Source of the DNA: a virus
Reading direction: 5' to 3' (one strand)
DNA length: 64,000 bases
Virus record (IMG/VR): IMGVR_UViG_3300045988_119787
Location: 1 to 64,000 of that record
In this document: one piece after another, positions 24,001 through 55,170 of the stretch
Numbering within the stretch: position 1 is the first letter of the stretch
Layout: each line of letters starts with the position of its first letter
Notes under the pieces: model-generated
The model's database searches: none
The model's input: only the letters and a program-made list of their open reading frames with translations
Told to the model about the DNA's origin: nothing
Made by a program: the position numbers and the translations under genes

Positions 24001-26107
24001 TATTCCTGAGGACGCTACACCAGACGAAATCAACCAGATAGTTGCAGACTTCAATACAGACATGAAGGCAAAGGCTGCACAGGGCTTGGCATCGAAGGTT
24101 TACCGCAGGGGCAGTATCGGCTATAAGTTCCAAAGAGCTGAGAATAAATCACAGCATATCGTAGACGTGAAGATTGCCGGCAAGACTCATTCTTTTGTTA
24201 TCAACGGAAATCCCAGAGCAGCGCAGGCATTGAATGGGTTGCTGGAGAACTCTAGCGCCAAGGGATTCATGAAACCTTTGAGCACTATTTCTAGAATGAT
24301 GGCACAGCTCTGTACTTCATACAACCCTGAGTTCGTGATGAGAAACGCCTTCCGTGATGCTGAGTTTGCTTCGAGCAACGTTACATCGAAGGAAGGTGCA
24401 AGATACGGGGCACTCTGGGCTAAGTACTACGCACAGCTGGGTCTGTATAAGGGCGCATCGAATATCAGCTTGAAGGATTTCAGCGGTTCTACGGGTTTGG
24501 GATTGTTCGCAAAGTATCGTAACGGCACACTTGATATTTCTGACAAGGTTCAGAGATACTTCAAGGAGTTCATGGAGAACGGCGGTGAGACTGGTTGGGT
24601 TCAGATCAAGAACATGAAGGATTGGACCAAGGAATACAAGAAAGACGTGAAGGACGAAAGAAGCAAGCTGAACAAGGGCGGTGAACTGGTACGTGATTTC
24701 TTCTTCGGTAACTTGGAGAACGTGAATGAGGTGGCAGAGAATATCGCCCGATTCACTACTTACTGTACGAGTCGTGATTATGGACGTTCCGTTATCCGCT
24801 CTGTCTATGATGCCAAGGAAGTATCTACCAACTTCAACCGTCATGGTAGCGGTGATGCCGTCAAGAGTTTCAAGAACGGTGAAATGACTGGAACCAAGGC
24901 TGCAAGAAGATGGGCATACGGATTTACTTCCGGCTATCTCAGACACTGCTCTATGTTCTTCAACGCTGGTATTCAGAGTACGAACCTTCTTGCGAAGAAC
25001 TTGAAGAATCATCCTGTAGGAACTTCCATCAACATGCTTGCCATTCCTTTTGCACTCGGTGCGCTGGCTGCACTTGGAAACAATGTGCTGATTGCGAGTG
25101 AGGACGAAAAGGACAGAAAGGGAGTGAAGGACCCATACGGTGAACTGCCTGACTACGTGAGAAGGAACAATCTCTGTATCTACAAGGGAGGCGGTCAGTT
25201 TATCACGATTCCGCTTGCCATCGAGTTAAGAGCTTTCTATGGCTTGGGTGACTTGGCTGCAGGCTTGACCTTCTCGCCAAACGTGAGCGGACAGAAGAAT
25301 CCTTACTTAGATGCCGTGGGCTGTATGTCGCAGCTGGTTCCTGTGATGGACTATCTCGGTAACTCTTCGGCAGGCAAAGAACCGATTAACGAGACCATCA
25401 AGGCTATCTCTCCTTCTGCCCTATCTCCATTCGTTGAATGGGAGTTAAATACCGACTGGAAGGGTGCGCCTATTGAGAGACGTGGCGACTGGAACGAAAA
25501 TTCCCCTGCTTGGCAGAGAGCCTACAAGGGTATTCCTGACGGTTATATGGCTGTAAACAAATGGGTGAATGCCCAGACAAACGATGTAGCCAAGGGTAAC
25601 GAGGATATGCTGGGTAATAGTTTCCTGGATATGGTAACGAACCCTAGTATGCTGAATCATTACATCGGCGGTCTTGGCGGTGGTGCTGCTACCTTTACTG
25701 AGCGTGCTATTGGTGTTGTGAAGCATGGAAATGATACGGAAACCAAGGATATTCCTTTCCTTCGCTCCCTACTCTATACGCCTAGCGAGCAAAGCAGCTT
25801 GCAGAGAACCAAGAGCAAGTGGTATAACTACAAGGACGAAATGGAAAAGACCATGGCAAATGTGGACCGTCTGAAATCCAAGAACGTTCCGATTGATAAG
25901 AGAATCACGAATATTGGGGAATATTATCACTTCCAAAACTCCAAGGAAGCTGCCAAGGTGAGAGTAATCGAGCTGGCAGAGAAACAGATGAAGCGCTGGA
26001 AGAAGATGAGGGATAAGGCTAGCGATACAGAAAGCATCAACTTCGCTAATCAGAATATTGATAGGATCATGATGGATGCGGTGGACGAACTGGATAGACT
26101 GGAATAA
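9038..26107 (+). CDS. Giant polyvalent protein (5,689 aa): ParB-like + N6-adenine MTase + strawberry-notch/DarB-type SF2 helicase + two zincin-like sites + large uncharacterised C-terminal region
   Basis: A single uninterrupted 17,070-nt ORF. Motifs are listed as separate features below. A terminator follows directly. Confidence 0.9.
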   Translation: MAGDKFDQLYNALKADGAVSGTREHFRQFVYAPGKQGYHNRKQLYDALHADGAVSSNSYEEFAQRLGLHAVNPKPQQKPIEQQKPMTTSQRAQKVAAQYKQQRQQPQRPQQPSTATASGTDYMKNWQLMHMRNYQMNPMQQAQASNMRTRMQGAQEQAARQEQQRATPISRSRITSTAKNFNETMQQLSTPEARRARAKQQREDDARAFAQYEVEGNNFAQNDGKYGTIAPEIDSLVAPSMEEADNLSWSQYQQALKNAGNDAYLRNKAWKDLQDNRIKNRQNVLADTLSSKLQEIYSQKGLQEHILQSAEKLNMGVEEYVDKYVTPQMMQRAQNILGVKNIEEILPQSATEYVVRRLSDSILGTLSAGQDKSREQIAREQEAMAIADGLEEMPTVNGYKANEGYKSGMGARFVSTAANMAMDSPILGMTGSASNLTVDLGKQVLMKGLAKAGVVKMGAKLTAQQLAFKAANMTMAQKIASGLVDGTAKSALNLGGYSSITAALGQASTGDDTSLSALGQAALGGFEHGATTGAMFGVSGAIMAPWVSKFGITGLEKSTGEKWLHGTQKLGATAAGLGVEAGTMMVADNITGDKDISFGTWLEDVVMVGAFKAGEPKNYAHIGNALYNLTHNSGGNFVIGKNTNGSPIAVDIRLTPDEKNELISSASGKNLMDAFVKVDRASKTAPRDSKYKTAYTDFMNDPDVSQSTKEKVNAAMGLFNTTRGKSYRSVNDVKNKQILEYTKNGTLLTRTSYKNADERRAILYKQKLYRDNDDMMSLIGYSKMKDMQLTDEDGNVTSLALGFLRNNGYDTSKDVTDPINAQLINDLRNPKSALYLDWEKYVDVYGSYGDLKVESADVVGGFMDTLKKMINDKGNMTVDIDNIMRKDPMKRTDQENKIFYYVKKALEDELFPSWRPHADQSASQGKTVAEEHSLGTDDPDSGVVVDELRNLRNAEQALDAAMDSNDVFKQTFEKLHQQGLTPAQIYDALIQNGLTQEELTPLAQYINANARVQGMQQATADVIEENVKSFISDWSYHGTLNGQAMNGEQALYVQDSNGRTLLVGSGDVAFDQTTGRAKEGSGDMLVCFDPNTREMVYVKADEVTLFQNQPIDQFAAEYRQRLQMKNSEPYNQAAQEQAMQDAAKPQQEQEAPQDNTTKSEDNTTKEGDLTKDDTTLTKVNTTSGKDNTTNENLAPQEQPQPSRKFADGSDVPMATDSKGRPTPDYEKMTPEQSAEILTEDFGDNAEKVVDGQIQKAEKALKDAEKMKVDYTAEPNDIMEQETLKNQTIEAAKKQLDHAQNIKKAMTAKKVAETVGKTEQTEGAHEAGSVAAQKFVNAPRLIGNKRTRMLPDGETKIKGHYEIVPAESLTPSHDVNNGYKKSEGFPTDAEGRTVNDRDYEHDKAAQQNTDQIARKYNGMAIEQVPVVSDEGIVYDGNGRTMAGQKAAKEGTDAEYINDLLENAENFGFTREQIEQSGIEHPRLVMVTDERLPYDAATFAKFNRNEKKTQSNTEQAVAKAKTLTSDEVGAIVAEIEGNGSLDAFFNNSKAINDLVKTLVDKGIIGQNEVAQMMDSPERLSAQGREYVKNLLLGSIFKPETIRMLGIDSTVKNKAINAIRSVMDNMKLGEFSLRDEIDQAIQLLYEARRGGNKVDTLLRTPSMFGEDAAKRYSSISQMMALALEGKVSDFRDLLDEYNRIAAARNTGEGDVFGEAPTKPELIKEFMDFKKWQDYGTGHSENERGNDVSGIEEPQQEASGGNEPAEAERPRVEEPEVGSLPLLPKEENPDPQFNPIEAAAAEFKKEHPLTEEEIMKADVDDLSKDMALDYQNGEVTDDLHRAIYESIYAKRKGLKAEPKVETPKSEPSADPMEAFKNAAEGFEKEKKGKAEQPKKPQQTADDAAVAASNKKVNDLWDMLKNAGKDEMSASFVGLNSRQLEVLPKLVSAMAENAYLRIKRGMHNLEDVVKEMRKEFAPASKIFKKEDVDAIYEQMMNIRYRDGEQRMSLKEWADYYEKTSPKHQENLVGDSKSAEERKMAEKKFIDVVNLQLGFKHKFNGIVELRKIAERLGLKDIKDTDLQELAETAIVKRARGIASSESTNNAEKFKRIKTLYENQPSLNQRDSERVMKQQYSTPAPYAFLADMYVKGNGKVIESALEPSAGNGMLTIGLPKDKVHVNDIDDTRLLNLNRQGFGKVTSQDGTQPFNVKPVDIVITNPPFGSATPKEYDGYKISSLEGQMAINALESMKDDGRAAIIIGGKTEYAKNGSLNPKDKAFLGYLYSHYNVEDVINVDGGLYAKQGTSYPTRIILINGRRLDENAFPPVKDKARAEAVKDYDELYKRIEDDILRGERMDSSIGGETRSAQPELDKQGAAGTPKERVRAGERGGSKPDGERESDLFDSTSVSGTHDDLENQRGTEPREDGGLSGGDTGTDRTGTEPSQSEGATAGTNEQRGAGSGGAGRNDAQPSTDEPASAGSGSGPRGQLQRVDKSVRGLSTEKVTYTPKSGNPFTLKAVMPADQQEAVNKNLEKLGDADQFLVDELGYNDKDDLYSHLAAEQVDSVALALQQAKKGNAFIIGDMTGIGKGRQAASLIRYAKKQGQVPVYFTKTAGLLSDVYRDLVDIGSPELRPFVFGSAKEAAITDSDGNVVFSLPSKSEVKRVLDYIEKNGKLPEEYDYVLTTYSQVSNGVYEFDEDGNRKERKLAKGKSFGAAALSGQKRRDAIEKLMGNAYLILDESHTAGGNSGQGNYFQHIIQKAKNVTFFSATFAKRPDNMPIYALRTAMNEGGMKSSDLIDAVKRGGATLQEIMSQTLTQCGQMIRRERDMTGVTIDWKAIDDPERVKEQREQYDSIIGLFNDIINFQKKYVSSYVDERNIELADIQSTMDIKKGTESLGIKNQPFASKAFNTVQQVLLSLKAKSAAERAIDYLKQGMKPVIALNNTNESQTGNLALGEEMDAPDLGTSLKKGLEGTLRYTQKDAKDNSESGYFKLEDLGEEAVKAYHELEKKIEQTSTGLSLSPIDVIKNELQKAGYKVGELTGRQTEFVYNDNGTVTKVKRADTDKKKLARDFNDGKIDALILNKSAATGISLHASSKYKDQKKRVMIVAQQQLDVNDEVQMRGRIDRTGQVARGAYEYVVSLIPAEQRLLMMFKAKLKSLDANTTSSQKSKFNEMEVADITNKYGDKVVKEYMAEHLDLYARMADPFGWEKTYGDDLSRINPQNLVVSGGGVGDGEAGADASKLLGRMALLRVNEQEKMLQEIGELYANEIQRLNEMGENDLEITELPLKAKTIHKEVWKQGAEPGGDNAFADNTYIEKVNMAILKKPMKASEVKASQEGLTGGKTWDEYKTEKKTAVKEYFGQKIANETQRYEERAVKAATKAKEKYIKDGKKGQEKSGMTDEQIEKNAEYQYETIYKQEKDKLDDVVKNLKEKAEMFDRVLDTFDTNQTFVLPTDMNNPNELSGFGNSYGRLIDIKITDNFSPNASSVSFATLDGRRKITFPIAGKVGAGENKADIIGAIDNMTKQAIGMGDSHLRVLNQNFDNWDRLTSNESRKNGYIVTGNLMQALVDSKDQGLGGQLVKYTTDTGEVKTGILMPDRFDPKGLTTDAPINSVTEKFELSSWHGGIDEVTSSDGEVKVKRIDNNRGYFYELRVPKSKAKGGKYFMDEDLLKLVNGNNFETRGNNMLAEFKPEQLKPVLDRLSKMGVKVQEERKTSEDEGTHFREDRGLQYSKTDTKDVKKGRIIPEDVDKNVSSQIEKKFDSTIKDIEEHTEDRDKSLFADNLESALDEFSDLGRSVIEYYKNDYERKVEKLSGQHTGGHLGGKNDGKGNKGSYLLQYYKTVLAVADRELAYRDARAKNLRETWGLQPGGAFTLGAVERIFKETNRDKGKAELFQRVLDINKRLGVNIKVSAESPKKRSGEADTNRNIDLYIDGLTKTMAPDYAAPTIMLHEMIHEVTMGAINLVKKGKAEGILTPKQIEGVKTILKIYDKVKDDKERFKEEPYGLTDAYELTAQMADSRQRKAMDLSIWDRVMNAAHEFARRGDRSILQRVKDAIKKLFEVSDKDKMDKAINDIMDDFNETIDDISMNEIEQDGFAYKVTDKDELDRLNKEKTFRMYSGMQEVDGKLYSPMAAIIDGKRTDATEIGAWMGADERPDLVKNGKFTLVKTDKNKGVGEGDVPAAYNPYMHTSTSMMNDQFTGAYARGNIKVVEWEIPESEKTSGYRAEGAKDAVGLVPWHSGSVNSLLPKDRQRQVMLSRWRKAVRVVPDSEVAESIAEQLKGTGLAIPWNVVTPNQVRELAKLGVPITTVESGRQAPETKEKFLQQMAELEQEFPQAKFVNVKMSKDAFKVWGKDGGTKFRTDHGESSYPTSSVESHVEKVAQKTGAKVNMVSSVDEITNKAAKAAIEEGRKITGWYDEKTGEVHLYMPNIHDRYTAEKTIWHEVVGHKGMRELFGEDRFNQFLRDVWYDLDKPENAELKKLVDEERRYNPLNIYDAIEEGIARLAEDGKGEPGFWNGIKNKVSDFLHEIGYRIAPNTKDVKYLLWLSKNLQKNPNDPYWKLRAEAVKFRLDHDRVPAVVAHDGMFYGNDGKVRSMESMTKSEWNEATDGQIHFRTTPSAGTALDRYHRSLDEHGYMFTESYMDNMLSLKKLMNAIVPDKKIEDIASSENPYILQNTMQGAMSDAAQMFERNVMKPLDKAMAGVLDAFDGKKDDEKIRNFNLYMITKHGLERNRVFFVRDFLRQMRMYEKKKQDADILENRWSNEKERLDNELNAGNIDLKEYYRQIDEFINNEIDPDYKAGEHDYSGIHAIQEVAKSSDPYDDAEAIASVMDSEAKMESIKKGAVKDYWDKVKAATQYSIDSDYKNGIISKELHGHVSNMFNWYVPLRKYDEATAEDTYGYITEQGDPKSYIGSTIMRARGHKYLSETNVLAQIGAMGNRAIKNGGMNAIRQAFARFARNNSGNNLITETSVWYEKDPMTGIVYERYPDIPEDATPDEINQIVADFNTDMKAKAAQGLASKVYRRGSIGYKFQRAENKSQHIVDVKIAGKTHSFVINGNPRAAQALNGLLENSSAKGFMKPLSTISRMMAQLCTSYNPEFVMRNAFRDAEFASSNVTSKEGARYGALWAKYYAQLGLYKGASNISLKDFSGSTGLGLFAKYRNGTLDISDKVQRYFKEFMENGGETGWVQIKNMKDWTKEYKKDVKDERSKLNKGGELVRDFFFGNLENVNEVAENIARFTTYCTSRDYGRSVIRSVYDAKEVSTNFNRHGSGDAVKSFKNGEMTGTKAARRWAYGFTSGYLRHCSMFFNAGIQSTNLLAKNLKNHPVGTSINMLAIPFALGALAALGNNVLIASEDEKDRKGVKDPYGELPDYVRRNNLCIYKGGGQFITIPLAIELRAFYGLGDLAAGLTFSPNVSGQKNPYLDAVGCMSQLVPVMDYLGNSSAGKEPINETIKAISPSALSPFVEWELNTDWKGAPIERRGDWNENSPAWQRAYKGIPDGYMAVNKWVNAQTNDVAKGNEDMLGNSFLDMVTNPSMLNHYIGGLGGGAATFTERAIGVVKHGNDTETKDIPFLRSLLYTPSEQSSLQRTKSKWYNYKDEMEKTMANVDRLKSKNVPIDKRITNIGEYYHFQNSKEAAKVRVIELAEKQMKRWKKMRDKASDTESINFANQNIDRIMMDAVDELDRLE
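13112..13354 (+). other. ParB/sulfiredoxin-like module within the giant ORF
   Basis: HYEIVPAESLTPSHD ... VVSDEGIVYDGNGRTMAG resembles the ParB N-terminal-domain pattern, with the DGNGRT box at 13337-13354. Confidence 0.5.
15500..15685 (+). other. N6-adenine DNA methyltransferase core motifs within the giant ORF
   Basis: Motif I LEPSAGNG (15500-15520) and motif IV NPPF (15674-15685), 58 aa apart as in gamma-class enzymes such as M.TaqI. Confidence 0.8.
16763..18412 (+). other. SF2 helicase (strawberry-notch-like) core within the giant ORF
   Basis: GDMTGIGKGRQ (16763-16795), LILDESH (DESH at 17234-17245), FFSATF, LILNKSAATGISLH, QMRGRIDRTGQ (18380-18412). Confidence 0.8.
20882..20899 (+). other. 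HExxH zincin motif (HEMIHE) within the giant ORF
   Basis: Context APTIMLHEMIHEVTMGAIN. Confidence 0.55.
22358..22375 (+). other. HExxGH zincin-like motif (HEVVGH) within the giant ORF
   Basis: Context AEKTIWHEVVGHKGMRELFG. The spacing is that of M49/DPP-III-type sites, not canonical HExxH. Confidence 0.4.
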
Positions 26108-28234: not shown

Positions 28235-29185
28235 TTAACCCCAGAATCCTGCATTGTTAGCAGCATTCAAACCATACAATCCTGCCTGATAAGCCACGCA
28301 GTTAGGAACCGCAGTAAATGGGCTATAAGGAGTAGTTACTGTCTCCGGCAGCTTACATTTGATGCCAGCTACCTCGTTCTGCAATCCTGCCAATACAGCA
28401 TTAATAGGTGCTACCGCCTGACCAACAATCTGTGAAGTCATAGCAGAAGACTTGAAGGTGCTGTTCTCCTCACGCAGAGAATCAATCTTGTTCTGCATCT
28501 CACGCATCTCAGCCTGCTTCTGACCGTCAACGATGGTCTGAGTGCTTTCCTTGATAGCGTTATGCAAATCGCAAGTCTGGCGCTGGGTTTCGTAAGCTAC
28601 GTTAGAGAAGCCACGCTCCTGACCTACAGCCACGTTGTTGATGGCATTCTGTAAGGTACCAGTCTGCTGGCAGATAGCCAAGCGGTTCTCGCAGCAGCAG
28701 TTTGCAATCTGCTGAGCAATCTGCATGTTACCCTGCTGTAAAGCATTGATGGTCTGCATACCACTCATACCTACCTGATTACCTACACTCTGGACCTGAG
28801 AAGTCAAGGCAGAAATGGCATTCTGAATCTGACCTTCGGTACAGTTAAGCTGAGTTGCGAGATTACTGAGAGCGTTACGATTACCGCCGATGGCATCCAT
28901 CAAGAGGCTACGACCGTAGTCATTGTTAATCTCGTTAGCGATACCGCCACGACCGTTACCGCCGAAGCCACCCCAGCCATTGCCGCCCCAACCCATAAGG
29001 AAGAAGAGGAAGATAACCCACATGAACCAACCACCTTCACCGCACATTCCATTGTTACCCTTCATGGCGAGAAGCACATTTGGATCTACACCCTGCTTCT
29101 GGAGCAGAGGAGCAAGAAGTCCAAGCATTCCGTTTGAACCTCCGTTTTGGTTTTCACCAAAGATGTATGTCTTAGATTCTGACAT
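28235..29185 (-). CDS. Gly/Trp-rich membrane-segment protein with a Q/N-rich coiled-coil and a CCC motif (316 aa)
   Basis: GGWFMWVIFLFFLMGWGGNGWGGFGGNGRGG, followed by a long Q/N/A heptad-like region. First gene after the promoter at 29228. Confidence 0.6.
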   Translation of the reverse strand: MSESKTYIFGENQNGGSNGMLGLLAPLLQKQGVDPNVLLAMKGNNGMCGEGGWFMWVIFLFFLMGWGGNGWGGFGGNGRGGIANEINNDYGRSLLMDAIGGNRNALSNLATQLNCTEGQIQNAISALTSQVQSVGNQVGMSGMQTINALQQGNMQIAQQIANCCCENRLAICQQTGTLQNAINNVAVGQERGFSNVAYETQRQTCDLHNAIKESTQTIVDGQKQAEMREMQNKIDSLREENSTFKSSAMTSQIVGQAVAPINAVLAGLQNEVAGIKCKLPETVTTPYSPFTAVPNCVAYQAGLYGLNAANNAGFWG

Positions 29186-29439: not shown

Positions 29440-29979
29440 ATGAAGAAATTATTGTTTTTGTTTTATTTAGTATGTTTCCCTATTGCTATACTTGCACAAG
29501 ATTCAGTGTTAGGTATAAATTTCGGGAACAGTTATAGTTCCGTCAAGTCTTCCCTTGAAAATAGATATGGCACTTTGAGCGTGATGGAAGATAAAGGAAC
29601 GCTAAGAGTCTTCGATATTTCTGTTGGTGACTACACGTTTAATATGGGAGAATTTGATTTTCAGTATAGCGGAAGTGATTCATACTTTTATTATGCGGAA
29701 TTTCAAAAAAACTTTTCTGTAAATGCTTCTCAACAGGCTAAAGACTTTAGAGAAAACTTGCGGTTTACATTGAGCCGGAAATATACAGCAGGCTATATAT
29801 GGACAAACGAACAAGGTTACAAATGCTATAATTTTGCAGAACCGGGAACAGATCCAAAAGAAAATCCTGCATGTACTTTAATAGTGCAAAAATCTAAAAG
29901 TAAGGGTGGATCAACTTATATATATGTTACTCTCTATTATGGTCCACATTATTATATAAATGAGGCTAGCGATTTTTAA
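29440..29979 (+). CDS. Secreted protein (179 aa) with a cleavable signal peptide
   Basis: MKKLLFLFYLVCFPIAILAQ signal peptide. Confidence 0.65.
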   Translation: MKKLLFLFYLVCFPIAILAQDSVLGINFGNSYSSVKSSLENRYGTLSVMEDKGTLRVFDISVGDYTFNMGEFDFQYSGSDSYFYYAEFQKNFSVNASQQAKDFRENLRFTLSRKYTAGYIWTNEQGYKCYNFAEPGTDPKENPACTLIVQKSKSKGGSTYIYVTLYYGPHYYINEASDF

Positions 29980-29981
29980 TC

Positions 29982-30200
29982 ATGAAAACATTTATACTTT
30001 TTGCGATACTGTTCTGTTCTTCCGTAGGAAGTCAAGGCGTTTATGTTTGTACTGGTCCAACAGCTTATGCTTATCACAAAACCAAAGCCTGCAGAGGTCT
30101 TAGACGATGCTCGGGAGAAATTAAGAAAATTAGTTTAGAACAAGCTAAAAAGGAAAACCGAAAAGCTTGCAAATTATGTTATAAAAAGAAACAAATATGA
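29982..30200 (+). CDS. Small secreted Cys-rich protein (72 aa)
   Basis: Signal peptide MKTFILFAILFCSSVGSQG, then six Cys (CTGP...C..L..C...C..C). Confidence 0.55.
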   Translation: MKTFILFAILFCSSVGSQGVYVCTGPTAYAYHKTKACRGLRRCSGEIKKISLEQAKKENRKACKLCYKKKQI

Positions 30201-30475
30201 GATACTTACCATTAATATTTTGTATATTTCTCCTATCTTGTGGACCATCAAAGAAAGATATGCAAGAGGAGATAGAATCTAAAAACGATACAATTATGAT
30301 TCTAAGGAGAGAAATCAACAAGCAGTCTGAGTATATAGATGAATTGCAAGAAAAGTTAGACAATGCAAGATCTTATGCGGAAGACGTTCAGGCCGCACTA
30401 GATGATGGAAGTTTTAGTGATGCTTACGATGCTGCATCAGATGCAGAATCGGAAGCTGATTATAATGATTATTAA
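30197..30475 (+). CDS. Small lipoprotein (92 aa) with an acidic C-terminus
   Basis: Lipobox-like IFLLSCG. Start overlaps the previous stop (ATGA). Confidence 0.55.
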   Translation: MRYLPLIFCIFLLSCGPSKKDMQEEIESKNDTIMILRREINKQSEYIDELQEKLDNARSYAEDVQAALDDGSFSDAYDAASDAESEADYNDY

Positions 30476-30484: not shown

Positions 30485-30667
30485 ATGAAAACAGAAGAAT
30501 GGGTTATTCTCATAGTATTTGTGTTGGTCGCCATTGAAAGATGCGGTGGTATGAATAAAGATGGTTCCGATAGAGGCGATACTTGGTATGAAGATATAAG
30601 CCTGGGAGTGCCAAACAACACTCCCATTCTTCTTTATCTATATTCTGTTTACTATCCTATCCGTTAG
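30485..30667 (+). CDS. Small membrane protein (60 aa)
   Basis: TM helix WVILIVFVLVAI. Confidence 0.4.
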   Translation: MKTEEWVILIVFVLVAIERCGGMNKDGSDRGDTWYEDISLGVPNNTPILLYLYSVYYPIR

Positions 30668-31530
30668 TCACCAGTTTGCTCCACACCTCCAATATTTATT
30701 GAAGAATAATTGCATTCTGATTTCAACTTCTTGATTGCAGCCTTTGCTGCTTCACTAGGAGTATAGGCAGATGATGTCCAAATCACAATATTCTTGTTTG
30801 AATCCTTGTTGCCTGTAAGATTTGACATATCTACCAACATGTTATTAACACTATCATTGTTATCAATAAAAACTCCTGCGCCTATATCTAACATATTTCC
30901 TGACACTTTGGAATTTGGGGCCCATGATGTAATAGTTCCACTAATTGCTTTCAAACTATTAGGAAGTGATGAAGGATTGTCTATTACCGTTCCTAGATAT
31001 TTCTCCAGCTTAACCGTTTTCATCAAGATTTCATCTGGAAAAATAATCCAAGTAGTATCTACAACATCTTCCGGATGAGCAAGTTTATCAATAGTAAATA
31101 TTTCTTTACTTGCATTTCTAATCCTATATAAGTGAATATATTCGAAATCACTCGGACTTTTGTATGGAGTAATGAAAACACCATCATAGTTTGGAAAATA
31201 GTATTTTCCCTTAATGGTGATAGTTGTTACTCCAGTATTAGGGAACTTGACAGCGTAATCTGAAATAGTCTCATCTTGAATATCTGCAAATCTAAGTGTA
31301 GTGTACTTTTTACCATTCGTTTCAAAATTACGCTGAAAGTAAGCCCCATTATCCAAGGTTGCCTCGAAATCTCCTCCTATGCTTTTTACAAAAGCTATCA
31401 TTCTCATAGAAATATAGGAATACAAAGTTTCCTTGGATTCTTTTGACACAATGAATTTAAATTCATTCAGTTTCGGAAGATTATCATTATCTACCGAACC
31501 ATAAAGTTTTGATATTAAACACTTTACCAT
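30664..31530 (-). CDS. Hypothetical protein downstream of the tail fibre gene (288 aa), possible fibre-associated or receptor-binding protein
   Basis: ORF track. AT-rich like the adjacent fibre gene. Function inferred from position only. Confidence 0.45.
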   Translation of the reverse strand: MVKCLISKLYGSVDNDNLPKLNEFKFIVSKESKETLYSYISMRMIAFVKSIGGDFEATLDNGAYFQRNFETNGKKYTTLRFADIQDETISDYAVKFPNTGVTTITIKGKYYFPNYDGVFITPYKSPSDFEYIHLYRIRNASKEIFTIDKLAHPEDVVDTTWIIFPDEILMKTVKLEKYLGTVIDNPSSLPNSLKAISGTITSWAPNSKVSGNMLDIGAGVFIDNNDSVNNMLVDMSNLTGNKDSNKNIVIWTSSAYTPSEAAKAAIKKLKSECNYSSINIGGVEQTGD

Positions 31531-31548
31531 ATTATTTATTTTTTTTAA

Positions 31549-34500
31549 TTATGATAATGAATTAATTAAATTATCAACCAAAGGAAGTCGCTCCTCTAAC
31601 CATTTCTTTACACGATATATGCTATCATAATGTCCAAGATAGAATGGTCTTTCTGAATAGTATTTTGTTACAGGAGACACGTTGGTGCAATCCTTAATAA
31701 CCTTAAATGCAAGATGCTCGAATACTACATAACTACCAGCAGTATAAGTTGTATCTTTATTCCATACCTTCTGACCAGAAGCTGTGATTCCTGCATCAGT
31801 ATATGTACATGGGGTATAGTATTCTGTGTTTATGTTACTATCCCTATGACAAGGAGATTGCTTCCATCTATCATACTCCTGCTTAAAATCATCTGTTCCA
31901 ATTCTAGAACACCAATCAGTAAGAAGGTTAATGATGTTGTCAGCAGTAAGTATAGCCTTTCTGAGTTCAGAATATCTTTTCTTCAACTCTGTTGCAAAAT
32001 ACTTATATACCCAATATGTTCCACCATATCCCTTTTTGTTTCCCATCAAGCTGATTGGCTCCATAAAATTATCTTTTGGTGAGAAGCTGAAAGTGCCATC
32101 AAAGAAATCTCCAAACACACCATCTAGGTCATAAGGATATACACCAAATCTTACTCCATTCCAAGAACCAATTTGCCAATTCTTACCAAATCCATCATAG
32201 TTAGCTATAACGTTTGAGAAACAAAGATAATCAATAATGCCATCTACATCATATCTGTTATCAATTTCATTCTTTATATCATCTTTGGTCTTGCTGCCAG
32301 CTTCTATTTGTGCTTCTACTTCAGTAAGTTCTGTATCATATTTACTTAGGGCAATGATATACTTTTTTACTTGAAATGATAGTTCCATATTCTTATTGGA
32401 AGCATCATAACTTTCAGATGTATCATCTATAAGCTCCTGCACTTTGTTTTTGTCTGCATCATATTTACTACCATCCATACAGATAAGAGACTTAGGGTTT
32501 CTTATCTCAAATCCCTGCTCACTCATCGGATTCCATGCAGTACTTGGCAATGTACCATTTGCAGAAAATAGGTTTTGTCTAATAAAACCATCCAAGTGTA
32601 TATTCTCAGCTTTATTCTTTGACATTTTCATATTGTCACGATGTTTCTTTAATTGCCAAGAAAAAACACCTAAGAACTCTCCTTCGAAATAGACTATGCA
32701 AGGAAATCCATCAGGAAAAGTTCTTGCTTCATCACCAAAGTCATAAGCAATTTCTGCATTTTGATTTATGCCATAAGATGCAGATGTGGAATCTTTATAG
32801 TATCTCTTATAAGCCCTGTCATTATGCAATCCACGACTTTTTGATATTTCATCAAACAATTTATAGCAAACAACTCCTGCACCTCTAAAGGCATCAGTAT
32901 AATATGCCTTAAAATGAAAACTGTCTTGTGATACCCAATTACCGATTTTTACTTTGCAGGTATCATCACCAATCCATTCATCATTGCATATAACTACTGC
33001 AAAATTCTTCTTTGCCAAATAGAGTGAACTACTTCCTTGCGCATTGAGAATTACACGTTTCTTAAAGTATATGCCTTCTAATGTCCATACTTCTATCCAT
33101 GCATGTAGATTCTGGGTTTTAGATGTTGGCATGTTTGATACTCCTGAAATGTTAACTATAGCCTTTCTTGGTTGATTTGGGATTCTTATATGATCATCAT
33201 TGCTCATGTCACAAGCATTGATGTTATATCCTTTACTTTTCAAATATTTAATGAAATCATTTCCGTCTTCAACATGGAGGCTGGCAACACGCATTTTTTT
33301 CTCAACCTTTGTACCATCTTTTTCACGGAAACCAAGAATTTTATCATCAGAATCAGTTATCAATTCCATGCGTTCCTCTTGGTCTTCAAAGGATTTTTTT
33401 GAATTTGCTACATCTTCATTGATAAGTGTTTTACCTACCTCCTTATTAACCTTTGTATCAAACGTTTCTGATTTCAAGTCATACACATAATGGCTTCCAT
33501 CATTGTATGTAGCAGAAAGAATCCTTCCGTCTGCATCTTTCTCTACTGCAAGGTACTCAGGATTCTCCTGCAAAGAGAAAATATCAAGAAGTTCTTGTAG
33601 ATTGGTATCTATTGTACCTACCTTCTCCTGCAATGATGCAAGGTCTGATTGAAGCTGAGAGATAACTTTCTTCAAGGCATTGACTGCATGAATCTCACCA
33701 ATGACCTCTCCGTCTCTTCTAAGACCAAGTAATACTTTATCGTCAGTAGTAACCCAAGCAGCAAAGTATTCTTCGCTCTGAATGACGTGATACATTTCAT
33801 TAAGAGGATAATATGGCTTGCCAGTTGCTCTGTAGAAGCCAAACAGTACCTTATCATCTGAATCCACTATAGCTTTGAGAAATTCTTCATTCTCAATTAT
33901 TCTAAAGCACTCTTTTACTTCATCTTCAATGAGTGATTTGCCTTCTTCCTTGTCAACCTTTGTATCTTGAAGATTCTTGATGTCCTCTCCAAACTTAGTA
34001 TTGAGACTATTGAGGTTTGCAAGAATGCTTGTAAGGGTCTGCGTATTCTCAATCTCAGCAAAGAACTTCTTCAACTCATTCATGGTATCAATGACATTTG
34101 TTGTGTCCTCATCACCCATGATGGTTGCTACTCTCTCTGCAAGAAGAGTTACTTGTGACTGCAATCTGTCCTCTACAGCACTTGTCTTACCAAATACTGG
34201 AGTGGCATCCCATTGGATACCAAAGAGAAGCTTGTCCTCTGCGTCCACCTTGGCAAAGATGAACTCTTCATTCTGAATGTAGCGGAAAGGAGTTTCTACT
34301 ACAGTTCCTTCCTCATCCTTGATAGCTACTTTATCTACTACTTCCTGCATTGTGCCAAGAGTCTGCTCTGTCTGCTCTCTAGAATCATCAGCCTTCTGGG
34401 CTGCTTCATTGGCTTTTAATGTAGCTTCTTCTGCCTTGGTTGTGGCAGCTTTAGCTTGCTCTGTAGCCTGAGCAGATGCTGTTGTTGCATTGGTTGCTAA

Positions 34501-34821
34501 CTGGGTAGCATTGTCAGCCGCTTCCTTTGCTGCTGTGGCTGCTGCTGTAGCTTGCTTTGCATTTTCTGTAGCTTGATCAGCTTTGGCGGTAGCTTCTTTT
34601 GCCTTCTCGGTTGCCTCATTTGATGCAGTTACAGAATTATTTATCTCTTGCCGGATAGACGGGGCAAGCTTTTGGGCTGTAACCGCACCGTCAGCCAACT
34701 TCTCGGAAGTAATATTGCCGTCACGAATCTTGTCTTTTGTAACAGATTGGTCATTATAATCATCTGTTTTCATCATTGGCACCATACCACCTATTTTTGT
34801 ATCTTGTCTAAATGTAGGCAT
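31549..34821 (-). CDS. Tail fibre protein (1,090 aa) with an Ala/Thr/Lys coiled coil, five ~30-aa repeats, a CotH-kinase-like domain and a CBM5/12-like C-terminal module
   Basis: The N-terminal repeats DGNITSEKLADGAVTAQKLA are typical of phage fibres. CotH-like strings: QGSSSLYLAKKNF, FPCIVYFEGEFLGVFSWQLKK, ANYDGFGKNWQIGSWNGVRFGVYPYDLDGVFG. CBM-like string: VWNKDTTYTAGSYVVFEHLAFKV. Confidence 0.7.
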   Translation of the reverse strand: MPTFRQDTKIGGMVPMMKTDDYNDQSVTKDKIRDGNITSEKLADGAVTAQKLAPSIRQEINNSVTASNEATEKAKEATAKADQATENAKQATAAATAAKEAADNATQLATNATTASAQATEQAKAATTKAEEATLKANEAAQKADDSREQTEQTLGTMQEVVDKVAIKDEEGTVVETPFRYIQNEEFIFAKVDAEDKLLFGIQWDATPVFGKTSAVEDRLQSQVTLLAERVATIMGDEDTTNVIDTMNELKKFFAEIENTQTLTSILANLNSLNTKFGEDIKNLQDTKVDKEEGKSLIEDEVKECFRIIENEEFLKAIVDSDDKVLFGFYRATGKPYYPLNEMYHVIQSEEYFAAWVTTDDKVLLGLRRDGEVIGEIHAVNALKKVISQLQSDLASLQEKVGTIDTNLQELLDIFSLQENPEYLAVEKDADGRILSATYNDGSHYVYDLKSETFDTKVNKEVGKTLINEDVANSKKSFEDQEERMELITDSDDKILGFREKDGTKVEKKMRVASLHVEDGNDFIKYLKSKGYNINACDMSNDDHIRIPNQPRKAIVNISGVSNMPTSKTQNLHAWIEVWTLEGIYFKKRVILNAQGSSSLYLAKKNFAVVICNDEWIGDDTCKVKIGNWVSQDSFHFKAYYTDAFRGAGVVCYKLFDEISKSRGLHNDRAYKRYYKDSTSASYGINQNAEIAYDFGDEARTFPDGFPCIVYFEGEFLGVFSWQLKKHRDNMKMSKNKAENIHLDGFIRQNLFSANGTLPSTAWNPMSEQGFEIRNPKSLICMDGSKYDADKNKVQELIDDTSESYDASNKNMELSFQVKKYIIALSKYDTELTEVEAQIEAGSKTKDDIKNEIDNRYDVDGIIDYLCFSNVIANYDGFGKNWQIGSWNGVRFGVYPYDLDGVFGDFFDGTFSFSPKDNFMEPISLMGNKKGYGGTYWVYKYFATELKKRYSELRKAILTADNIINLLTDWCSRIGTDDFKQEYDRWKQSPCHRDSNINTEYYTPCTYTDAGITASGQKVWNKDTTYTAGSYVVFEHLAFKVIKDCTNVSPVTKYYSERPFYLGHYDSIYRVKKWLEERLPLVDNLINSLS

Positions 34822-35110
34822 ATTTTATTTCTTTTGGTTCTGATGAAGTGAATATCTGAATTTTAACATTCTCCGGGATAATTCTCATCCTGAGATAGAA
34901 CTTATCCATGTTTTTGTGCGCTCGGATGGGTGCTCTTGGCTTTTTGCCATCGCCAATATCCTGACGAATGATAAGCTTGCCAGGGCTTTTGAGCTTAATC
35001 ATCAAATAGATGTCTCGCTGCAAGGGAATATCCTTTGTTATCCACGCACGTTCCTCTTCGCTATATGTTGAAACTACGTATTCCATTGCTTTGTAAGATA
35101 TTTCGTCCAA
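34808..35110 (-). CDS. hypothetical protein (100 aa)
   Basis: ORF track; start/stop overlaps with neighbours on the same strand. Confidence 0.5.
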   Translation of the reverse strand: MDEISYKAMEYVVSTYSEEERAWITKDIPLQRDIYLMIKLKSPGKLIIRQDIGDGKKPRAPIRAHKNMDKFYLRMRIIPENVKIQIFTSSEPKEIKYAYI

Positions 35111-35451
35111 CTGTAATGAGGTCTGTTATAAGGATAGACGGGGTATTGCTGATACGCACGTGCTTCCTGCTCGAAAGAGATTGCCCGATACGCCTTGTGA
35201 GGGTTGCGGATAACCAAGAGACGAATGAGCCATTCCAATACATACCAGAGATAGAAGAAGACATATAACATTTCCTGCATCTGCTTGGTATGGATTTGTT
35301 CATGAACTACCGTTTGCTGCGAGAGGGTTTTGTTTCCTCTGACAAACAACACTCCAAAGAGGTTTATTGCAATGAATCCCTTTGGAGGGATAAGGTTATT
35401 TCTAATTATCTTCATATCCTTATTATTTAATAATCCAGAAAGTTTGTCCAT
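35074..35451 (-). CDS. Small HExxH protein (125 aa) with a hydrophobic helix, putative zincin-like metallopeptidase
   Basis: VHEQIHTKQ, followed by LYVFFYLWYVLEWLIRLLV and FEQEARAY (ImmA/IrrE-like spacing). Confidence 0.45.
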   Translation of the reverse strand: MDKLSGLLNNKDMKIIRNNLIPPKGFIAINLFGVLFVRGNKTLSQQTVVHEQIHTKQMQEMLYVFFYLWYVLEWLIRLLVIRNPHKAYRAISFEQEARAYQQYPVYPYNRPHYSWTKYLTKQWNT

Positions 35452-37212: not shown

Positions 37213-37869
37213 CTAGCTTTTAGAAGTTTGTGCTCCCAGCTGCTGCAAGGCGATGGTGTACATCTGGGTAGCTTTTGTATCATCGTAAGCAGAGAGCAAC
37301 AGATAGGCGATATAGTAGATGAAAGCATTCTTTAGCATATCCGGAACGGCAATATCGGAAGAAGACTCAGTATTGATGTTCTTTGGAACGCCAACAAAAG
37401 AAACGGTTGCCTCTTCTGCCATTGGCTGTAGGAGAATCCGAATAGGATTTTCCCGAAGGATGGTAGCCTGGGGGCGGTCTTTGGTCCCCTTGGCGGTATC
37501 ATCAAACATCATGAGTGCTTCATCGGAAGTATCTTCTACCGGCACTACAGCCTTGAACCAGTCCTTGCCACGAATGCGAGAGACATTGATAATCTCTGTA
37601 TTGGCATCCATTGAGACTACTCCAATGCCCAGTTGCTCATTGTAGGTAGAAACCTGCAAGGTAGAAGTAGTAGCGCCAATCTTCTTGGAATCAGCCAAGA
37701 CAGCGGAAGAGGATGCCGTGATGGTAAGCCAATGCAAAGCATCATTAATCTTCGACTTGATGATGTTATCCATATACAAATCGTCCTTCTCATCGGTGAT
37801 TTCCGATGTGTTGTTGGATTCCTCGTCTATGCACCAACGTACTGCCTTTATGATTTCCTCTACACTCAT
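37213..37869 (-). CDS. Virion-module hypothetical protein (218 aa), possible head-tail connector
   Basis: ORF track and position between the capsid and fibre genes. Confidence 0.45.
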   Translation of the reverse strand: MSVEEIIKAVRWCIDEESNNTSEITDEKDDLYMDNIIKSKINDALHWLTITASSSAVLADSKKIGATTSTLQVSTYNEQLGIGVVSMDANTEIINVSRIRGKDWFKAVVPVEDTSDEALMMFDDTAKGTKDRPQATILRENPIRILLQPMAEEATVSFVGVPKNINTESSSDIAVPDMLKNAFIYYIAYLLLSAYDDTKATQMYTIALQQLGAQTSKS

Positions 37870-41106: not shown

Positions 41107-43125
41107 ATGGCAAAGGCAAAGTTATTAACACTTAGTAGAGTGATGCCTCGGCATAACAAATATGATTCGGTCAAGGCTCGAAAGCGGAGACAGGAGCACG
41201 GCAAGGACTGGGAGCTTCTTACCCGATGTAAGAACGACTGGAATAACCTGAGTGGCGTAAGGGAGACGAGAGCAAGAACCATGAGATACTGTAACGGTGA
41301 ACAATGGAGCGACACCATCAGAGTTTATCATCGTGGCTATTGGGAAGAAATGTCTGAGAAAACCTATATGCAGAAGCGAAATCAGACACCAATGAGCAAC
41401 AACATCATGATAAGTATCTTGGAATCTATTGCCGGTCTCTACGCCAAGCAGGGCACGGAACCCGTCTGCTTTGCAAGAGATAATGACTCCCGACAACTGA
41501 GCGACATGATGAGTGCTACGATGCAATGCAACTGGCAGACCACCGGCATGCAGGATTTACTGAATCACCTTATCAAGGATTATCTGCAGGGCGGTCAGAT
41601 GTTCGTGAGGGAAAGCTGGGAAGACCGAGAACTTGAAATGCCCGATGCTTGGACGGACGCAATGGAACCGGACCACATGTTCTTTGAGTGCGGAAGCGAC
41701 CCAAGACACAATGACGTTTGTCTGATAGGTTGTCTGCATGACGTAAGCAAGGAAGACCTGTATCAGAAGTTTGCCAGAAGGGAATACGGACTGACGGTTG
41801 ATGATCTGAATAGGATTTTTGACATTCATGATGTAGACGATAGCAGTTATGGCTACGAGTTCAACGAGGAAAAGGCTTTGGACAATCTCAGCTTCGATTA
41901 CACCAACAAGGGCAGACACTACGTAAGAGTGATTGAGGTATGGAGTACGGAAACCAAGCCTAGACTGCAATGCTTCGACCCTATTGCCAAGAACATGAAC
42001 AACGCTTGGTTCCGTGTGGATTTGGAAGACACGGCTATGATAAACAAGCTGATTCAGGAAAACGAGAAGCGCAAGAAGCAGTATGATGAATACGGTGTGC
42101 CGGAAGAAGACCGTGCCTACATCACATCGGAAGATCTTTCTGATAAATACTGGTACTATACCTTCATGGCTCCTGACGGTACGGTCCTCTGTCGTGGCGA
42201 ATCTCCTTACGATTTCAAGAGTCACCCATACACCATGAAGCTTTATCCGTTCATCAACGGAGAGATTCATCCTTTCATGACCAACGTGATAGACCAGCAG
42301 CGCTACATCAACCGCCTGATCGTGATGAACGACATGAGTATCAGAAGCAGCTTCAAGGGATTCAAGATGATTCCTACAACCGTACTGGGTGGAAGAACAC
42401 CAGAGCAGTTCATGGAAGAGGCAATAGAATACGATGGATGGATATTCTACACACCAAAGAGAACGATGCCGAACGTGAAGCCAGAGATTATCACTTCGAA
42501 TGCGGTAAACATCGGAACAAACGAACTCTTGCAGATAGAGCTGAACCTTATCAGAGAGGTGACCAACGTGAGCGGTGCCTTGCAGGGCAAGACTCCTTCG
42601 GCTGGTACATCGGCTGCAAGATATGCACAGGAGAGTCAGAACGCAACCACTTCGCTCTACACCATCCTATCCGATATGGAGATTTTTACGGAGAAGCTGG
42701 CAATGAAAAAGTGCTCAGTTATCCAACAGTTCTACGAGGACGGAAGAAAGATTTTCAACAAGGACGGTCTGAACACCTACAGCTATGACAGGCTATCAGC
42801 AAGAGACATTCATTTCAAGATAAGCATCAAGAATGCAGCTGCATCTGCTGCCTTCAACACTTTGCAGAATGACGACTTGAAGGAGTTGCTGCAGATGGGT
42901 GCAATCAACCTGATTCAGTACTTGCAGAATGTAAACAAGCCTTATGCAGACAAGTTGCTTGCCAGCGTGCAGGAACAGCAGGCGCAGCTGGAACAGATGT
43001 ATCAGCAACAACAGGCGATGGCTCAACAGCAAGGAGGCGGTCAGGTAGTAAATGGCGTGGTACAGGGTGCAGACCAGAACGCAGTGGCACAAGCTATGAA
43101 TTTGTATAACAATCAAGCAGCATAA
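41107..43125 (+). CDS. Portal protein (672 aa)
   Basis: RYCNGEQWSD and NNIMISILESIAGLYAKQGTEPVCFAR are portal-like N-terminal motifs. Size, Q-rich C-terminus and location in the head module agree. Confidence 0.7.
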   Translation: MAKAKLLTLSRVMPRHNKYDSVKARKRRQEHGKDWELLTRCKNDWNNLSGVRETRARTMRYCNGEQWSDTIRVYHRGYWEEMSEKTYMQKRNQTPMSNNIMISILESIAGLYAKQGTEPVCFARDNDSRQLSDMMSATMQCNWQTTGMQDLLNHLIKDYLQGGQMFVRESWEDRELEMPDAWTDAMEPDHMFFECGSDPRHNDVCLIGCLHDVSKEDLYQKFARREYGLTVDDLNRIFDIHDVDDSSYGYEFNEEKALDNLSFDYTNKGRHYVRVIEVWSTETKPRLQCFDPIAKNMNNAWFRVDLEDTAMINKLIQENEKRKKQYDEYGVPEEDRAYITSEDLSDKYWYYTFMAPDGTVLCRGESPYDFKSHPYTMKLYPFINGEIHPFMTNVIDQQRYINRLIVMNDMSIRSSFKGFKMIPTTVLGGRTPEQFMEEAIEYDGWIFYTPKRTMPNVKPEIITSNAVNIGTNELLQIELNLIREVTNVSGALQGKTPSAGTSAARYAQESQNATTSLYTILSDMEIFTEKLAMKKCSVIQQFYEDGRKIFNKDGLNTYSYDRLSARDIHFKISIKNAAASAAFNTLQNDDLKELLQMGAINLIQYLQNVNKPYADKLLASVQEQQAQLEQMYQQQQAMAQQQGGGQVVNGVVQGADQNAVAQAMNLYNNQAA

Positions 43126-54100: not shown

Positions 54101-54156
54101 TTTTACTTTTTTAGTTTTTCATAGGGTTTAAATTTATTATGTTAATTGTCTTTGAC

Positions 54157-54196
54157 GAAAAAAATCCCCACTCGGCTGTGATAGCTGGGTGGGGAT
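54157..54196 (-). terminator. Rho-independent terminator of the leftward early block (may act in both directions)
   Basis: ATCCCCAC (54164-54171) pairs with GTGGGGAT (54189-54196). On the minus strand a T7 run follows (A7 at 54157-54163). Confidence 0.65.
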
Positions 54197-54202
54197 TGTG
54201 GG

Positions 54203-54544: not shown

Positions 54545-54546
54545 AA

Positions 54547-54780: not shown

Positions 54781-54792
54781 AAGCTATTTCTT

Positions 54793-55167: not shown

Positions 55168-55170
55168 AAG

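Follow-up and report, generated by a model that had tools for sequence, protein, structure and literature searches.

Phage host range is decided by receptor-binding proteins, and those of gut Bacteroidales phages are mostly uncharacterised. One open reading frame in the 64-kb window (the whole stretch of viral DNA that was analysed) raises the question of what a kinase-like fold might do at the tip of a tail fibre. An earlier note on this DNA had described the gene product as a fibre that carries a CotH-kinase-like domain and a CBM5/12-like module, and had offered two roles for it, a receptor-binding scaffold or an agent that modifies surface components. These appear to be the right options, and both are kept here. 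Judging from the sequence evidence, we consider it moderately likely that the protein is a receptor-recognition fibre whose head is built on an enzyme, one that is probably catalytic family-wide and possibly attenuated in this lineage. The features on which the argument draws are the following.

31549–34821, minus strand: tail-fibre gene, 1090 residues (ORF list, position and synteny)
34327–34641, minus strand: Ala/Thr/Lys/Glu-rich heptad coiled coil, residues 61–165 (Ala autocorrelation)
33292–34287, minus strand: shaft with dispersed repeats of ~33 residues (leave-one-out HMM against shuffles; DNA repeat families D1 and D2)
31810–33204, minus strand: core of the CotH (protein-kinase-like) domain, residues 540–1004 (Pfam, AF2, Foldseek, motif alignment, conservation and dN/dS)
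Within the CotH core, minus strand: active-site equivalents D876, N881, D898 and D900 (alignment to the 5JD9 motifs)
32992–32994, minus strand: V610, codon GTT (family alignment and sibling contigs)
31627–31809, minus strand: variable insert, residues 1005–1065, with a CBM5/12-like unit W1020-x5-Y1026-x2-G1029...F1039 (alignments, profile and fold searches)
31552–31626, minus strand: terminal helix, residues 1066–1090, D-S-I-Y-R-V-x-x-W (models and alignments)
30664–31530, minus strand: downstream partner gene, 288 residues (co-transferred with the distal fibre; blastn cassette to L005)

The 1090-residue product is laid out as an Ala-rich heptad coil, dispersed repeats and a C-terminal CotH module. 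Initiation at an alternative start, M16 (nt 34776), would give a protein of 1075 residues, which is how gene callers place it on sibling contigs. In the translation of ORF 31549..34821, all of the motif strings quoted by the earlier note were found where it had claimed them: QGSSSLYLAKKNF occupies residues 595–607, FPCIVYF...QLKK residues 706–726, and NYDGFGKNW...YPYDLDGVFG residues 874–904, with the YDLD located exactly at nt 32122–32133. VWNKDTTYTAGSYVVFEHLAFKV spans residues 1019–1041 (nt 31699–31767), within the interval 31657–31779 that had been assigned to the carbohydrate-binding module. The "typical fibre N-terminus" gained no support from profile searches. Residues 1–60 were matched by no profile, profile searches recognised no virion-attachment domain in them, and the tail-fibre PHROG matches fell only on the low-complexity coil; Mtd_N is carried by relatives only, and the fibre studied shows just an "FRQDTK" trace. 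Because fibres attach to the virion via their N-terminus, the C-terminal 550 residues would make up a globular, distally placed head.

The coiled coil that had been proposed at about 34340–34640 has genuine heptad periodicity, with Ala autocorrelation over residues 61–165 peaking at lag 7 (0.44) and lag 14 (0.39). It is presumably the proximal, trimeric part of the shaft; its matches to Pfam Alanine_zipper and to a tail-fibre PHROG are weak. The ~33-residue repeats take the form F-x-x-I-(Q/E)-N-E-E-F...D-x-D-D-K-(V/L)-L-x-G, lie at residues 179, 306, 344, (415) and 478, and are interspersed with coil segments and a second motif, DTKV(D/N)KE-GK-(S/T)-LI, at residues 286–302 and 455–471. Five repeats had been reported and five copies can indeed be aligned, but only three stand strongly above chance. 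In leave-one-out HMM comparisons, these three score 16–37 bits where shuffles reach at most 5, the copy at residue 478 is marginal (5.6 versus 3.1 for shuffles), and the copy at residue 415 does not rise above chance. Three copies are detectable in the DNA and, with the second-motif pair, are the only direct repeats of at least 50 nt in the window. The KVDKEEGKSLI motif recurs in 46 of the 120 relatives. Pfam "Phage_fiber_rpt" was rejected as the identity of the DTKVDKEEGKSLI motif, as the matching P0045 segment is a different sequence. At the sequence level, heptad periodicity and repeats together describe the elongated shaft expected of a tail fibre; dN/dS was not used for this region, where indels make it unreliable.

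Profile and structural evidence support the assignment of the CotH domain. Pfam PF08757 matched residues 784–990 with 55.4 bits (cut-off 23.8), and relatives match the profile from position 4, at the QG(S/T)SS...KKN motif. The AF2 model is of high quality (pLDDT 90.5, pTM 0.91) and matches the Bacillus cereus CotH kinase: Foldseek returned 5JDA/5JD9 with an E value of 1.2e-12 and a probability of 1.0 over ~460 columns (target TM 0.60–0.64), and all subsequent matches had E > 0.05. The terminal helix closes the domain and is kept even in relatives that have no insert. The dN/dS of the core is 0.11.

A CotH fold on a fibre tip had been called unusual, a view that its distribution does not support. 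At 50% identity, the module accounts for about 1,900 clusters, and 95 of 121 close relatives are fibre-type, meaning that they lack a signal peptide, carry CotH at the C-terminus and are extended N-terminally by 150 residues or more. In relatives, the CotH module is coupled to Mtd_N, collagen and fibre-repeat domains, BFVD contains 13 viral CotH folds, and the module is also found in a Klebsiella prophage and in crAss-like phages. CotH-tipped fibres are thus common, and databases and surveys have already recorded them. Published DGR surveys mention phage CotH proteins as unstudied, and the literature describes Bacteroides DGR proteins that combine CotH with carbohydrate-binding motifs and LRRs. 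The "CotH" of Pseudomonas KIL phage papers proved to be the author name Cother.

A check of the catalytic residues identified D876, N881 and D898 as the equivalents of the catalytic Asp, the catalytic-loop Asn and the metal-binding Asp, respectively. None of the three varies in any of the 121 sequences, and the same holds for K725, K726, R728, N730, D744, E772, R774 and K777. D876 and D898 align, with equal spacing, with the NFDGF and WDYD motifs of 5JD9, and are the equivalents of B. subtilis CotH D228 and D251, for which catalytically dead mutants have been published (PMC7821199). About 50 columns are at least 98% conserved over 120 relatives that share roughly 40% identity, secreted cellular members included, and the QGSSS, KKN and KKHRDN motifs are conserved family-wide. 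An N-lobe profile gave no match to 5JD9, and a homologue search seeded with a 5JD9 fragment returned fragments only.

Position 610 is Asp in all 120 other family members and Val in the fibre studied. A sequencing error was ruled out, since seven independent sibling contigs share the Val. These siblings also carry R728S, which is found in 7 of the 8 members of the D610V micro-lineage, and both substitutions fall in two of the 50 most conserved columns. Catalysis may have been weakened in this lineage after D610V (and R728S in the siblings), leaving mainly binding; the two changes could even mean that the fibre copy in this lineage is not catalytic at all.

The CBM5/12-like module had been placed within the last ~90 residues of the protein. 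It is inserted into the final part of the CotH domain and does not form a free-standing terminal domain; in relatives the insert is absent, single or double. Pfam CBM_5_12 (PF02839) did not match the fibre, either as a whole protein (E up to 10) or as its C-terminal segment (E up to 1), but did match the equivalent insert in 6 of 30 relatives (best E 1.4e-6), and relative P0099 scored 26.6 against a cut-off of 26.2. A PDB profile search with the insert gave sub-threshold matches to the CBM12 of Vibrio chitin deacetylases (E 0.6–3.6). Residues 986–1090 were modelled with a pLDDT of 90.2, and nearly all of the top ~25 Foldseek matches to this model are CBM5/12-bearing chitinases or chitin deacetylases, all with E of at least 0.2. 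The comparison with 1WVV gave an rmsd of 0.9 Å over 34 residues and that with 2D49 a target TM of 0.57, again at E of at least 0.2. The aromatic residues W1020, Y1026 and F1039 are present in the insert sequence. The likeness to CBM5/12 comes from the relatives and from non-significant top fold matches, not from any Pfam match in the fibre itself, and the assignment is plausible, if weakly supported.

The fibre gene lies downstream of genes for a portal, an SU10-type capsid protein, an SU10-like adaptor and a 594-residue tail-like protein. The locus is syntenic with L001, L002 and L009–L015, and a widespread gut podovirus lineage, detected in 303 index blocks of human-gut assemblies, has the same gene order. 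The 288-residue partner has 57 homologue clusters, all of 288 residues and without a known domain. Its N-terminal ~30 residues are homologous to a 375-residue protein of L001 (phmmer E 7e-9), which is encoded next after the CotH fibre there and carries LRR_4; PDB sequence searches with the 594- and 288-residue neighbours gave nothing significant. DNA identity to L005 (92%, blastn) is limited to 30643–33906, a block whose start lies on a repeat unit and which corresponds to a trough in GC, and the same CotH head is joined to differing N-terminal parts in L011, L012 and L015. The distal fibre and the 288-residue gene move together as a cassette whose breakpoint lies in a repeat unit. This cassette with its partner gene is newly described here, as is D610V (with R728S in the siblings) at otherwise invariant columns. 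No near-identical DNA was found in the cultured-phage collection, and the nearest cultured relatives by capsid protein are Bacteroides phages, at only 24% identity. The source is an uncultured podovirus of the human gut whose hosts are probably Bacteroidales.

For receptor binding, any catalysis and its substrate, we infer the following scheme. The short anchor, the alanine-zipper-type coil and the repeat and coil segments form the shaft, and the C-terminal head consists of a complete CotH-type domain with a small CBM5/12-like, putatively sugar-binding unit before the last helix. As an "enzyme plus targeting module," this head would engage a host surface glycan or glycoconjugate, with specificity provided by the variable CBM-like insert and by a separate partner (the 288-residue protein here, an LRR protein in a related phage). 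In most family members, the conserved kinase-type site would carry out a phosphoryl-transfer step on the receptor, either phosphorylation with luminal ATP or phosphodiester cleavage. The logic would be that of esterase-tipped fibres, in which the receptor is modified rather than depolymerised. Recombination at the shaft repeats swaps the distal fibre and the partner gene between phages. To our knowledge, phosphoryl-transfer-type chemistry is not known for any phage receptor-binding protein. Several points count against this scheme: a kinase outside the cell has no assured source of ATP, the N-terminal anchor resembles no known fibre domain, the fibre's own insert falls short of every CBM5/12 threshold, and D610V and R728S alter highly conserved columns. 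In addition, head identity is about 40–50% across very different phages, and such strong conservation is atypical of a specificity-determining tip.

The scheme can be extended to the whole family, such that CotH-tipped fibres would be a large unrecognised class of virion-borne receptor-modifying enzymes. Working with a divalent metal, and either with luminal ATP or without any nucleotide, these would phosphorylate a glycan on the host surface or cleave a phosphodiester in it, and would be targeted by the CBM-like insert and a partner LRR protein or ORFan. We think this generalisation unlikely; if it were true, the D610V/R728S micro-lineage would be a snapshot of a receptor-modifying enzyme becoming a pure adhesin.

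The same substitutions bear on the alternative that the CotH fold serves purely as an adhesin and that the conserved cleft is a ligand pocket. A location outside the cell makes ATP-dependent chemistry awkward. D610V is fixed in the lineage and was followed by R728S in 7 of its 8 members, both at otherwise invariant columns, as might be expected of a pseudoenzyme, and Mucorales CotH invasins are reported to act as ligands of a host receptor (PMC9973265). Binding alone, however, rarely demands conservation of 98% or more in about 50 columns, those of the catalytic Asp/Asn/Asp triad among them, across relatives that include cellular secreted members. The triad is still intact in the fibre studied, and the core dN/dS is 0.11. 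We regard a binding-only scaffold as rather unlikely.

ATP would be available if the protein acted as a kinase within the infected cell, phosphorylating virion or host proteins before its incorporation into the particle and taking on its structural role as a second job. The intact active site is compatible with this, Bacillus CotH is itself an assembled coat component that phosphorylates its neighbours CotB and CotG (PMC7821199), and Roux et al. speculated on a role for phage CotH proteins in the manipulation of host signalling. An extracellular, glycan-facing role is indicated instead by the embedded CBM5/12-like unit, by the cellular relatives with dockerins or signal peptides, and by the presumably distal position of the head, and no Ser-rich, CotB/CotG-like substrate gene was seen near the fibre in the ORF list; we rate an intracellular kinase as improbable. 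We give still less credence to the idea that the head binds a non-host polysaccharide, such as dietary chitin or fibre or mucus glycans, and so holds the phage where its hosts feed. Two observations would suit such niche adherence: among cellular proteins, the nearest relatives are of the cellulosome type and carry dockerin and CBM_5_12, and the insert finds its best fold matches in chitin-binding modules (E of at least 0.2). Yet the gene sits in the main fibre slot and is swapped, with its partner gene, as a host-range-type cassette, and the structural module showed no other obvious gene for a long fibre.

Among the recurrent fibre tips of gut phages is a module of kinase fold whose active site is fully conserved. 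If it is catalytic, as we favour for the family, phosphoryl transfer would join the glycosidases, lyases and esterases in the virion enzyme repertoire, and the widespread secreted and cellulosomal CotH proteins would gain a function open to experiment. Should the module instead be a binding scaffold, it would plainly illustrate the recruitment of a kinase fold for adhesion. The D610V and R728S forms that occur in nature could serve directly as constructs for comparison.

Comparison with known systems places the head within the CotH family while setting it apart in context. It shares its fold with Bacillus CotH (PF08757; 5JD9/5JDA), together with the N-x-D-G-F...N and (W/Y)-D-x-D motifs, and both proteins belong to a large assembled structure. 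Identity is only about 12%, however, and the phage domain exceeds the Bacillus one by ~100 residues and contains an additional helical region and the CBM-like insert; unlike Bacillus CotH, it is fused to a fibre shaft and is presumably extracellular. The CotH proteins of DGR phages and prophages (about 2,000–2,300 residues, with CotH, Laminin_G_3/CBM/LRR modules and a hypervariable C-type lectin) are likewise phage-encoded and gut- or Bacteroides-associated, and have a CotH active region beside carbohydrate-binding or LRR modules. The fibre is half their size and has no C-type lectin, its LRR or other binding module is encoded by a separate downstream gene rather than within the same protein, and it varies by cassette exchange rather than by mutagenic retrohoming. 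It was ruled out as a DGR target, as the window contains no template/variable repeat pair and the fibre gave no C-type-lectin match.

Gut and rumen bacteria encode cellulosomal and secreted CotH proteins (CotH and dockerin, with or without CBM_5_12) that are 36–41% identical to the fibre over the whole head, insert included, and the insert of some members reaches the Pfam CBM_5_12 threshold. In these proteins a signal peptide or dockerin replaces the fibre shaft and the insert is in tandem (double); their role is likewise unknown (PMC12484212). SGNH-esterase fibres, such as gp63.1 of E. coli phage G7C and the receptor-binding proteins of Klebsiella prophages, offer an analogy only. They too have a non-depolymerase tip enzyme that modifies the receptor glycan, and this activity has been shown experimentally (PMC13123978), but their fold and chemistry are unrelated to those of the CotH head.

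A homologue of the head (E 5e-59) is found in gp13, a "CotH kinase family protein" of Klebsiella phage ST437-OXA245phi4.1 (a P2-like prophage, RefSeq NC_049448), which has a full-length Pfam CotH match and occupies the tail-fibre slot directly after the baseplate genes. The protein encoded downstream of gp13 was considered as a C-type lectin because of a GNVWERT string, and this identity had no Pfam support. Unlike the gut phage fibre, gp13 is a 649-residue protein of an Enterobacteria myovirus and has neither the CBM-like insert nor the helical region (profile positions 218–303), and it has not kept the KK motif (725/726). It retains the catalytic residues, an acidic residue at position 610 and Arg at position 728.

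The fibre gene lies in a podovirus-type structural module, the members of which are given here in their listed order.

Features around the fibre (window coordinates)
41107–43125: P22-like portal
between portal and adaptor: 564-aa capsid-type protein
37213–37869: SU10-like adaptor
after the adaptor: 594-aa tail-like protein, then two small genes
31549–34821, minus strand: tail fibre, 1090 aa in the ORF list
30664–31530, minus strand: 288-aa ORFan, next gene downstream of the fibre

All strings quoted in the earlier note for the fibre were found in place, including YDLD (nt 32122–32133) and VWNKDTTYTAGSYVVFEHLAFKV (nt 31699–31767). The CotH assignment held up. The Pfam profile (PF08757) matched residues 784–990 with 55.4 bits (gathering score 23.8). 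In relatives, the match begins at profile position 4 with a QG(S/T)SS...KKN motif, which supports the proposal that CotH extends to the more N-terminal strings. For the C-terminal head (residues 540–1090, 65 homologues as input), the AlphaFold2 model was confident (pLDDT 90.5, pTM 0.91). In the PDB it significantly matched just two entries, 5JDA and 5JD9, both Bacillus cereus CotH kinase (about 460 columns aligned with probability 1.0 and E about 1e-12); the next in rank, PI3K and HipA kinases, had non-significant E-values. In the family-profile alignment, N-Y-D876-G-F-G-K-N881 and Y-D898-L-D900 of the fibre align with NFDGFVHN and WDYD of 5JD9. The aligned Asp residues are 23 apart in the 5JD9 chain and 22 in the fibre, with a one-residue alignment gap. 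The 5JD9 spacing is that of D228–D251 in B. subtilis CotH, where D228Q and D251A are catalytically dead mutants (PMC7821199). D876, N881 and D898 are invariant in 121/121 sequences (the fibre and its 120 best matches), as are K725, K726, R728, N730, D744, E772, R774 and K777. The CotH core has a dN/dS of 0.11 in the comparison of the window with its nearest diverged relative. The fold assignment itself is routine.

Position 610 of the fibre is Val (GTT, 32992–32994) and is Asp in all 120 other relatives. V610 is common to seven independent contigs, which differ from the window at merely 2–3 of 551 residues and also carry R728S, in a column that is invariant elsewhere in the family. The two substitutions arose one after the other, and the catalytic triad is intact in this micro-lineage. 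A homologue from Klebsiella, in contrast, has Glu in the 610 column and Arg in the 728 column. V610/R728S is specific to this lineage and lies at the active-site face; it may reflect either stepwise loss of a D610–R728 salt bridge or relaxed catalytic constraint, as in an incipient pseudoenzyme.

The carbohydrate-binding module claimed at the C terminus sits inside the CotH domain as an insert and is not a free terminal domain. The variable insertion runs from the invariant W986 to the terminal helix D-S-I-Y-R-V-x-x-W (residues 1066–1087); it is absent from the group of the relative P0009, present as one ~60-aa unit in the fibre and doubled in dockerin-bearing cellular relatives. Pfam CBM_5_12 does not match the fibre itself but does match 6 of 30 relatives (best E 1.4e-6); the relative P0099 is barely over the curated cut-off (26.6 versus 26.2 bits). 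The insert profile gave only sub-threshold PDB matches (E 0.6–3.6), all real ones falling on CBM12 modules of Vibrio chitin-oligosaccharide deacetylases. A separate model of residues 986–1090 (pLDDT 90.2) returned nothing from Foldseek at E <=0.001, yet nearly all of its top 25 matches were CBM5/12-bearing chitinases or deacetylases (1WVV, rmsd 0.9 Å over 34 residues; 2D49, target TM 0.57). Convergence of these three weak lines makes it plausible that the insert is a CBM5/12-like module.

The shaft agreed in part with its earlier description. The Ala/Thr/Lys/Glu coil is a true heptad repeat (residues 61–165; alanine autocorrelation at lags 7 and 14 is 0.44 and 0.39, respectively). Five units of ~33 aa align with one another (at residues 179, 306, 344, 415 and 478). 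When they were scored by leave-one-out HMM against 200 shuffles, three stood far above chance (16–37 bits, shuffle maximum 5), the unit at 478 was marginal and that at 415 was not above chance. A second motif pair, DTKV[D/N]KE-GK-[S/T]-LI, occupies residues 286–302 and 455–471; together with three repeat units, it accounts for the only DNA-level direct repeats of at least 50 nt in the window. A typical fibre N terminus was not confirmed: residues 1–60 had no profile match, and tail-fibre PHROG matches were confined to the low-complexity coil. The start is ambiguous (34776–34821, minus strand). With a start at the first ATG, the protein has 1090 aa and its gene overlaps the upstream one by 14 nt; M16, chosen by gene callers on sibling contigs, gives 1075 aa and a 31-nt gap. 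FRQDTK, upstream of M16, faintly resembles the Mtd_N start in the relative P0029.

The window and the contig that carries the nearest diverged relative resemble each other at the DNA level in 30643–33906 alone (92% identity), a segment that comprises the distal ~780 fibre residues and the entire 288-aa gene. On the left, the segment breaks at base 1 of repeat unit 2, and it overlies a GC trough (0.34–0.35 versus 0.42–0.48 elsewhere). Sibling contigs carry the same head on differing N-terminal parts. The distal fibre and the 288-aa gene undergo cassette exchange. Homologues of the 288-aa protein form 57 clusters, every one exactly 288 aa, in which no known domain was found; dN/dS against the nearest diverged relative is 0.27. 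Over its first ~30 residues it is homologous (E 7e-9) to an LRR-repeat protein encoded next after the fibre of P0009. This N terminus resembles a conserved docking end to which variable binding domains are attached.

The earlier note considered a CotH fold on a fibre unusual, but such folds on phage tail proteins are already catalogued and are not rare, judging from cluster counts, BFVD, a Klebsiella prophage and published surveys. A word-index search with the head gave 698 clusters at 90% identity; an exhaustive search gave 1,933 at 50% identity with E <=1e-3, 400 of them with E <=1e-30. Among the fibre and its 120 best matches, 95 carry the module C-terminally, preceded by 150 aa or more with no signal peptide, and 15 look like secreted cellular proteins (several with dockerin, one in a cellular context in a Bacteroides MAG). 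Thirteen significant viral CotH folds are in BFVD, among them Bacillus phage G Gp353, large proteins of crAss-like phages and some that already bear the name "CotH kinase protein". In the Klebsiella P2-like prophage ST437-OXA245phi4.1, the fibre position immediately behind the baseplate genes is occupied by a RefSeq "CotH kinase family protein", a true homologue of the head (E 5e-59). In published surveys, phage CotH proteins figure as DGR targets of ~2,000 aa with fused C-type lectins, carbohydrate-binding motifs and LRRs, and are termed unstudied; we found no functional study of a phage-tail CotH protein in the literature. This class had been noticed, but the present fibre differs from it in being a compact, non-DGR, fibre-tip form that has a CBM5/12-like insert and whose partner gene is transferred along with it.

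We favor, with moderate confidence, a tail fibre whose head combines an enzyme with a targeting module. The head would lie at the distal end of the fibre. That family members from phages and cells alike strictly keep a kinase-type active site speaks for catalysis in the family; a glycan or glycoconjugate ligand is suggested by the variable CBM-like insert together with the partner protein, and a role in host range by cassette exchange. The chemistry could be phosphorylation with luminal ATP or phosphodiester cleavage. Catalysis may be attenuated in this lineage, given V610/R728S, and a head that only binds, as a pseudoenzyme, is a lesser but real prospect, against which the family-wide conservation speaks. 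We regard a kinase acting inside the cell, in assembly or host takeover, by analogy with Bacillus CotH, as improbable, and adherence of the head to a non-host polysaccharide as more doubtful still. CotH proteins of phages and secreted CotH proteins of bacteria form a very large family, for which this locus, with its natural D610V/R728S variants, makes the question of function directly testable.

The same gene order surrounds the fibre of P0009, where genes are annotated as SU10_MCP and SU10_adaptor and a polyvalent protein of 5767 aa is present. In the assembly collection, P0009 has entries in 303 index blocks; the contigs examined came from human-gut metagenomes. No cultured phage is close at the DNA level; the nearest capsid homologues are from Bacteroides phages (24% identity). 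Near the fibre module, a giant 5689-aa ORF (9038–26107, plus strand) has a homologue of the same length on sibling contigs with Pfam ddrB-ParB, AAA_34, Helicase_C_4 and LPD38 domains, which mark it as a polyvalent protein, a kind known from conjugative elements and some phages. Three small ORFs (29440–30475, plus strand; 179, 72 and 92 aa) have signal-peptide or lipoprotein-like N termini and are moron-like, lying on the strand opposite to the flanking tail-module genes. A 125-aa ORF (35074–35451, minus strand), called as a gene on sibling contigs, contains an HExxH-like HEQIH string and has no family match. A 316-aa Gly/Asn/Gln/Cys-rich protein (28235–29185, minus strand) matches PHROG 16490, of unknown function (E 1.6e-45). 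A second low-GC trough (0.36; 54001–58000), with negative GC skew, resembles that of the fibre cassette and may be another horizontally acquired segment.
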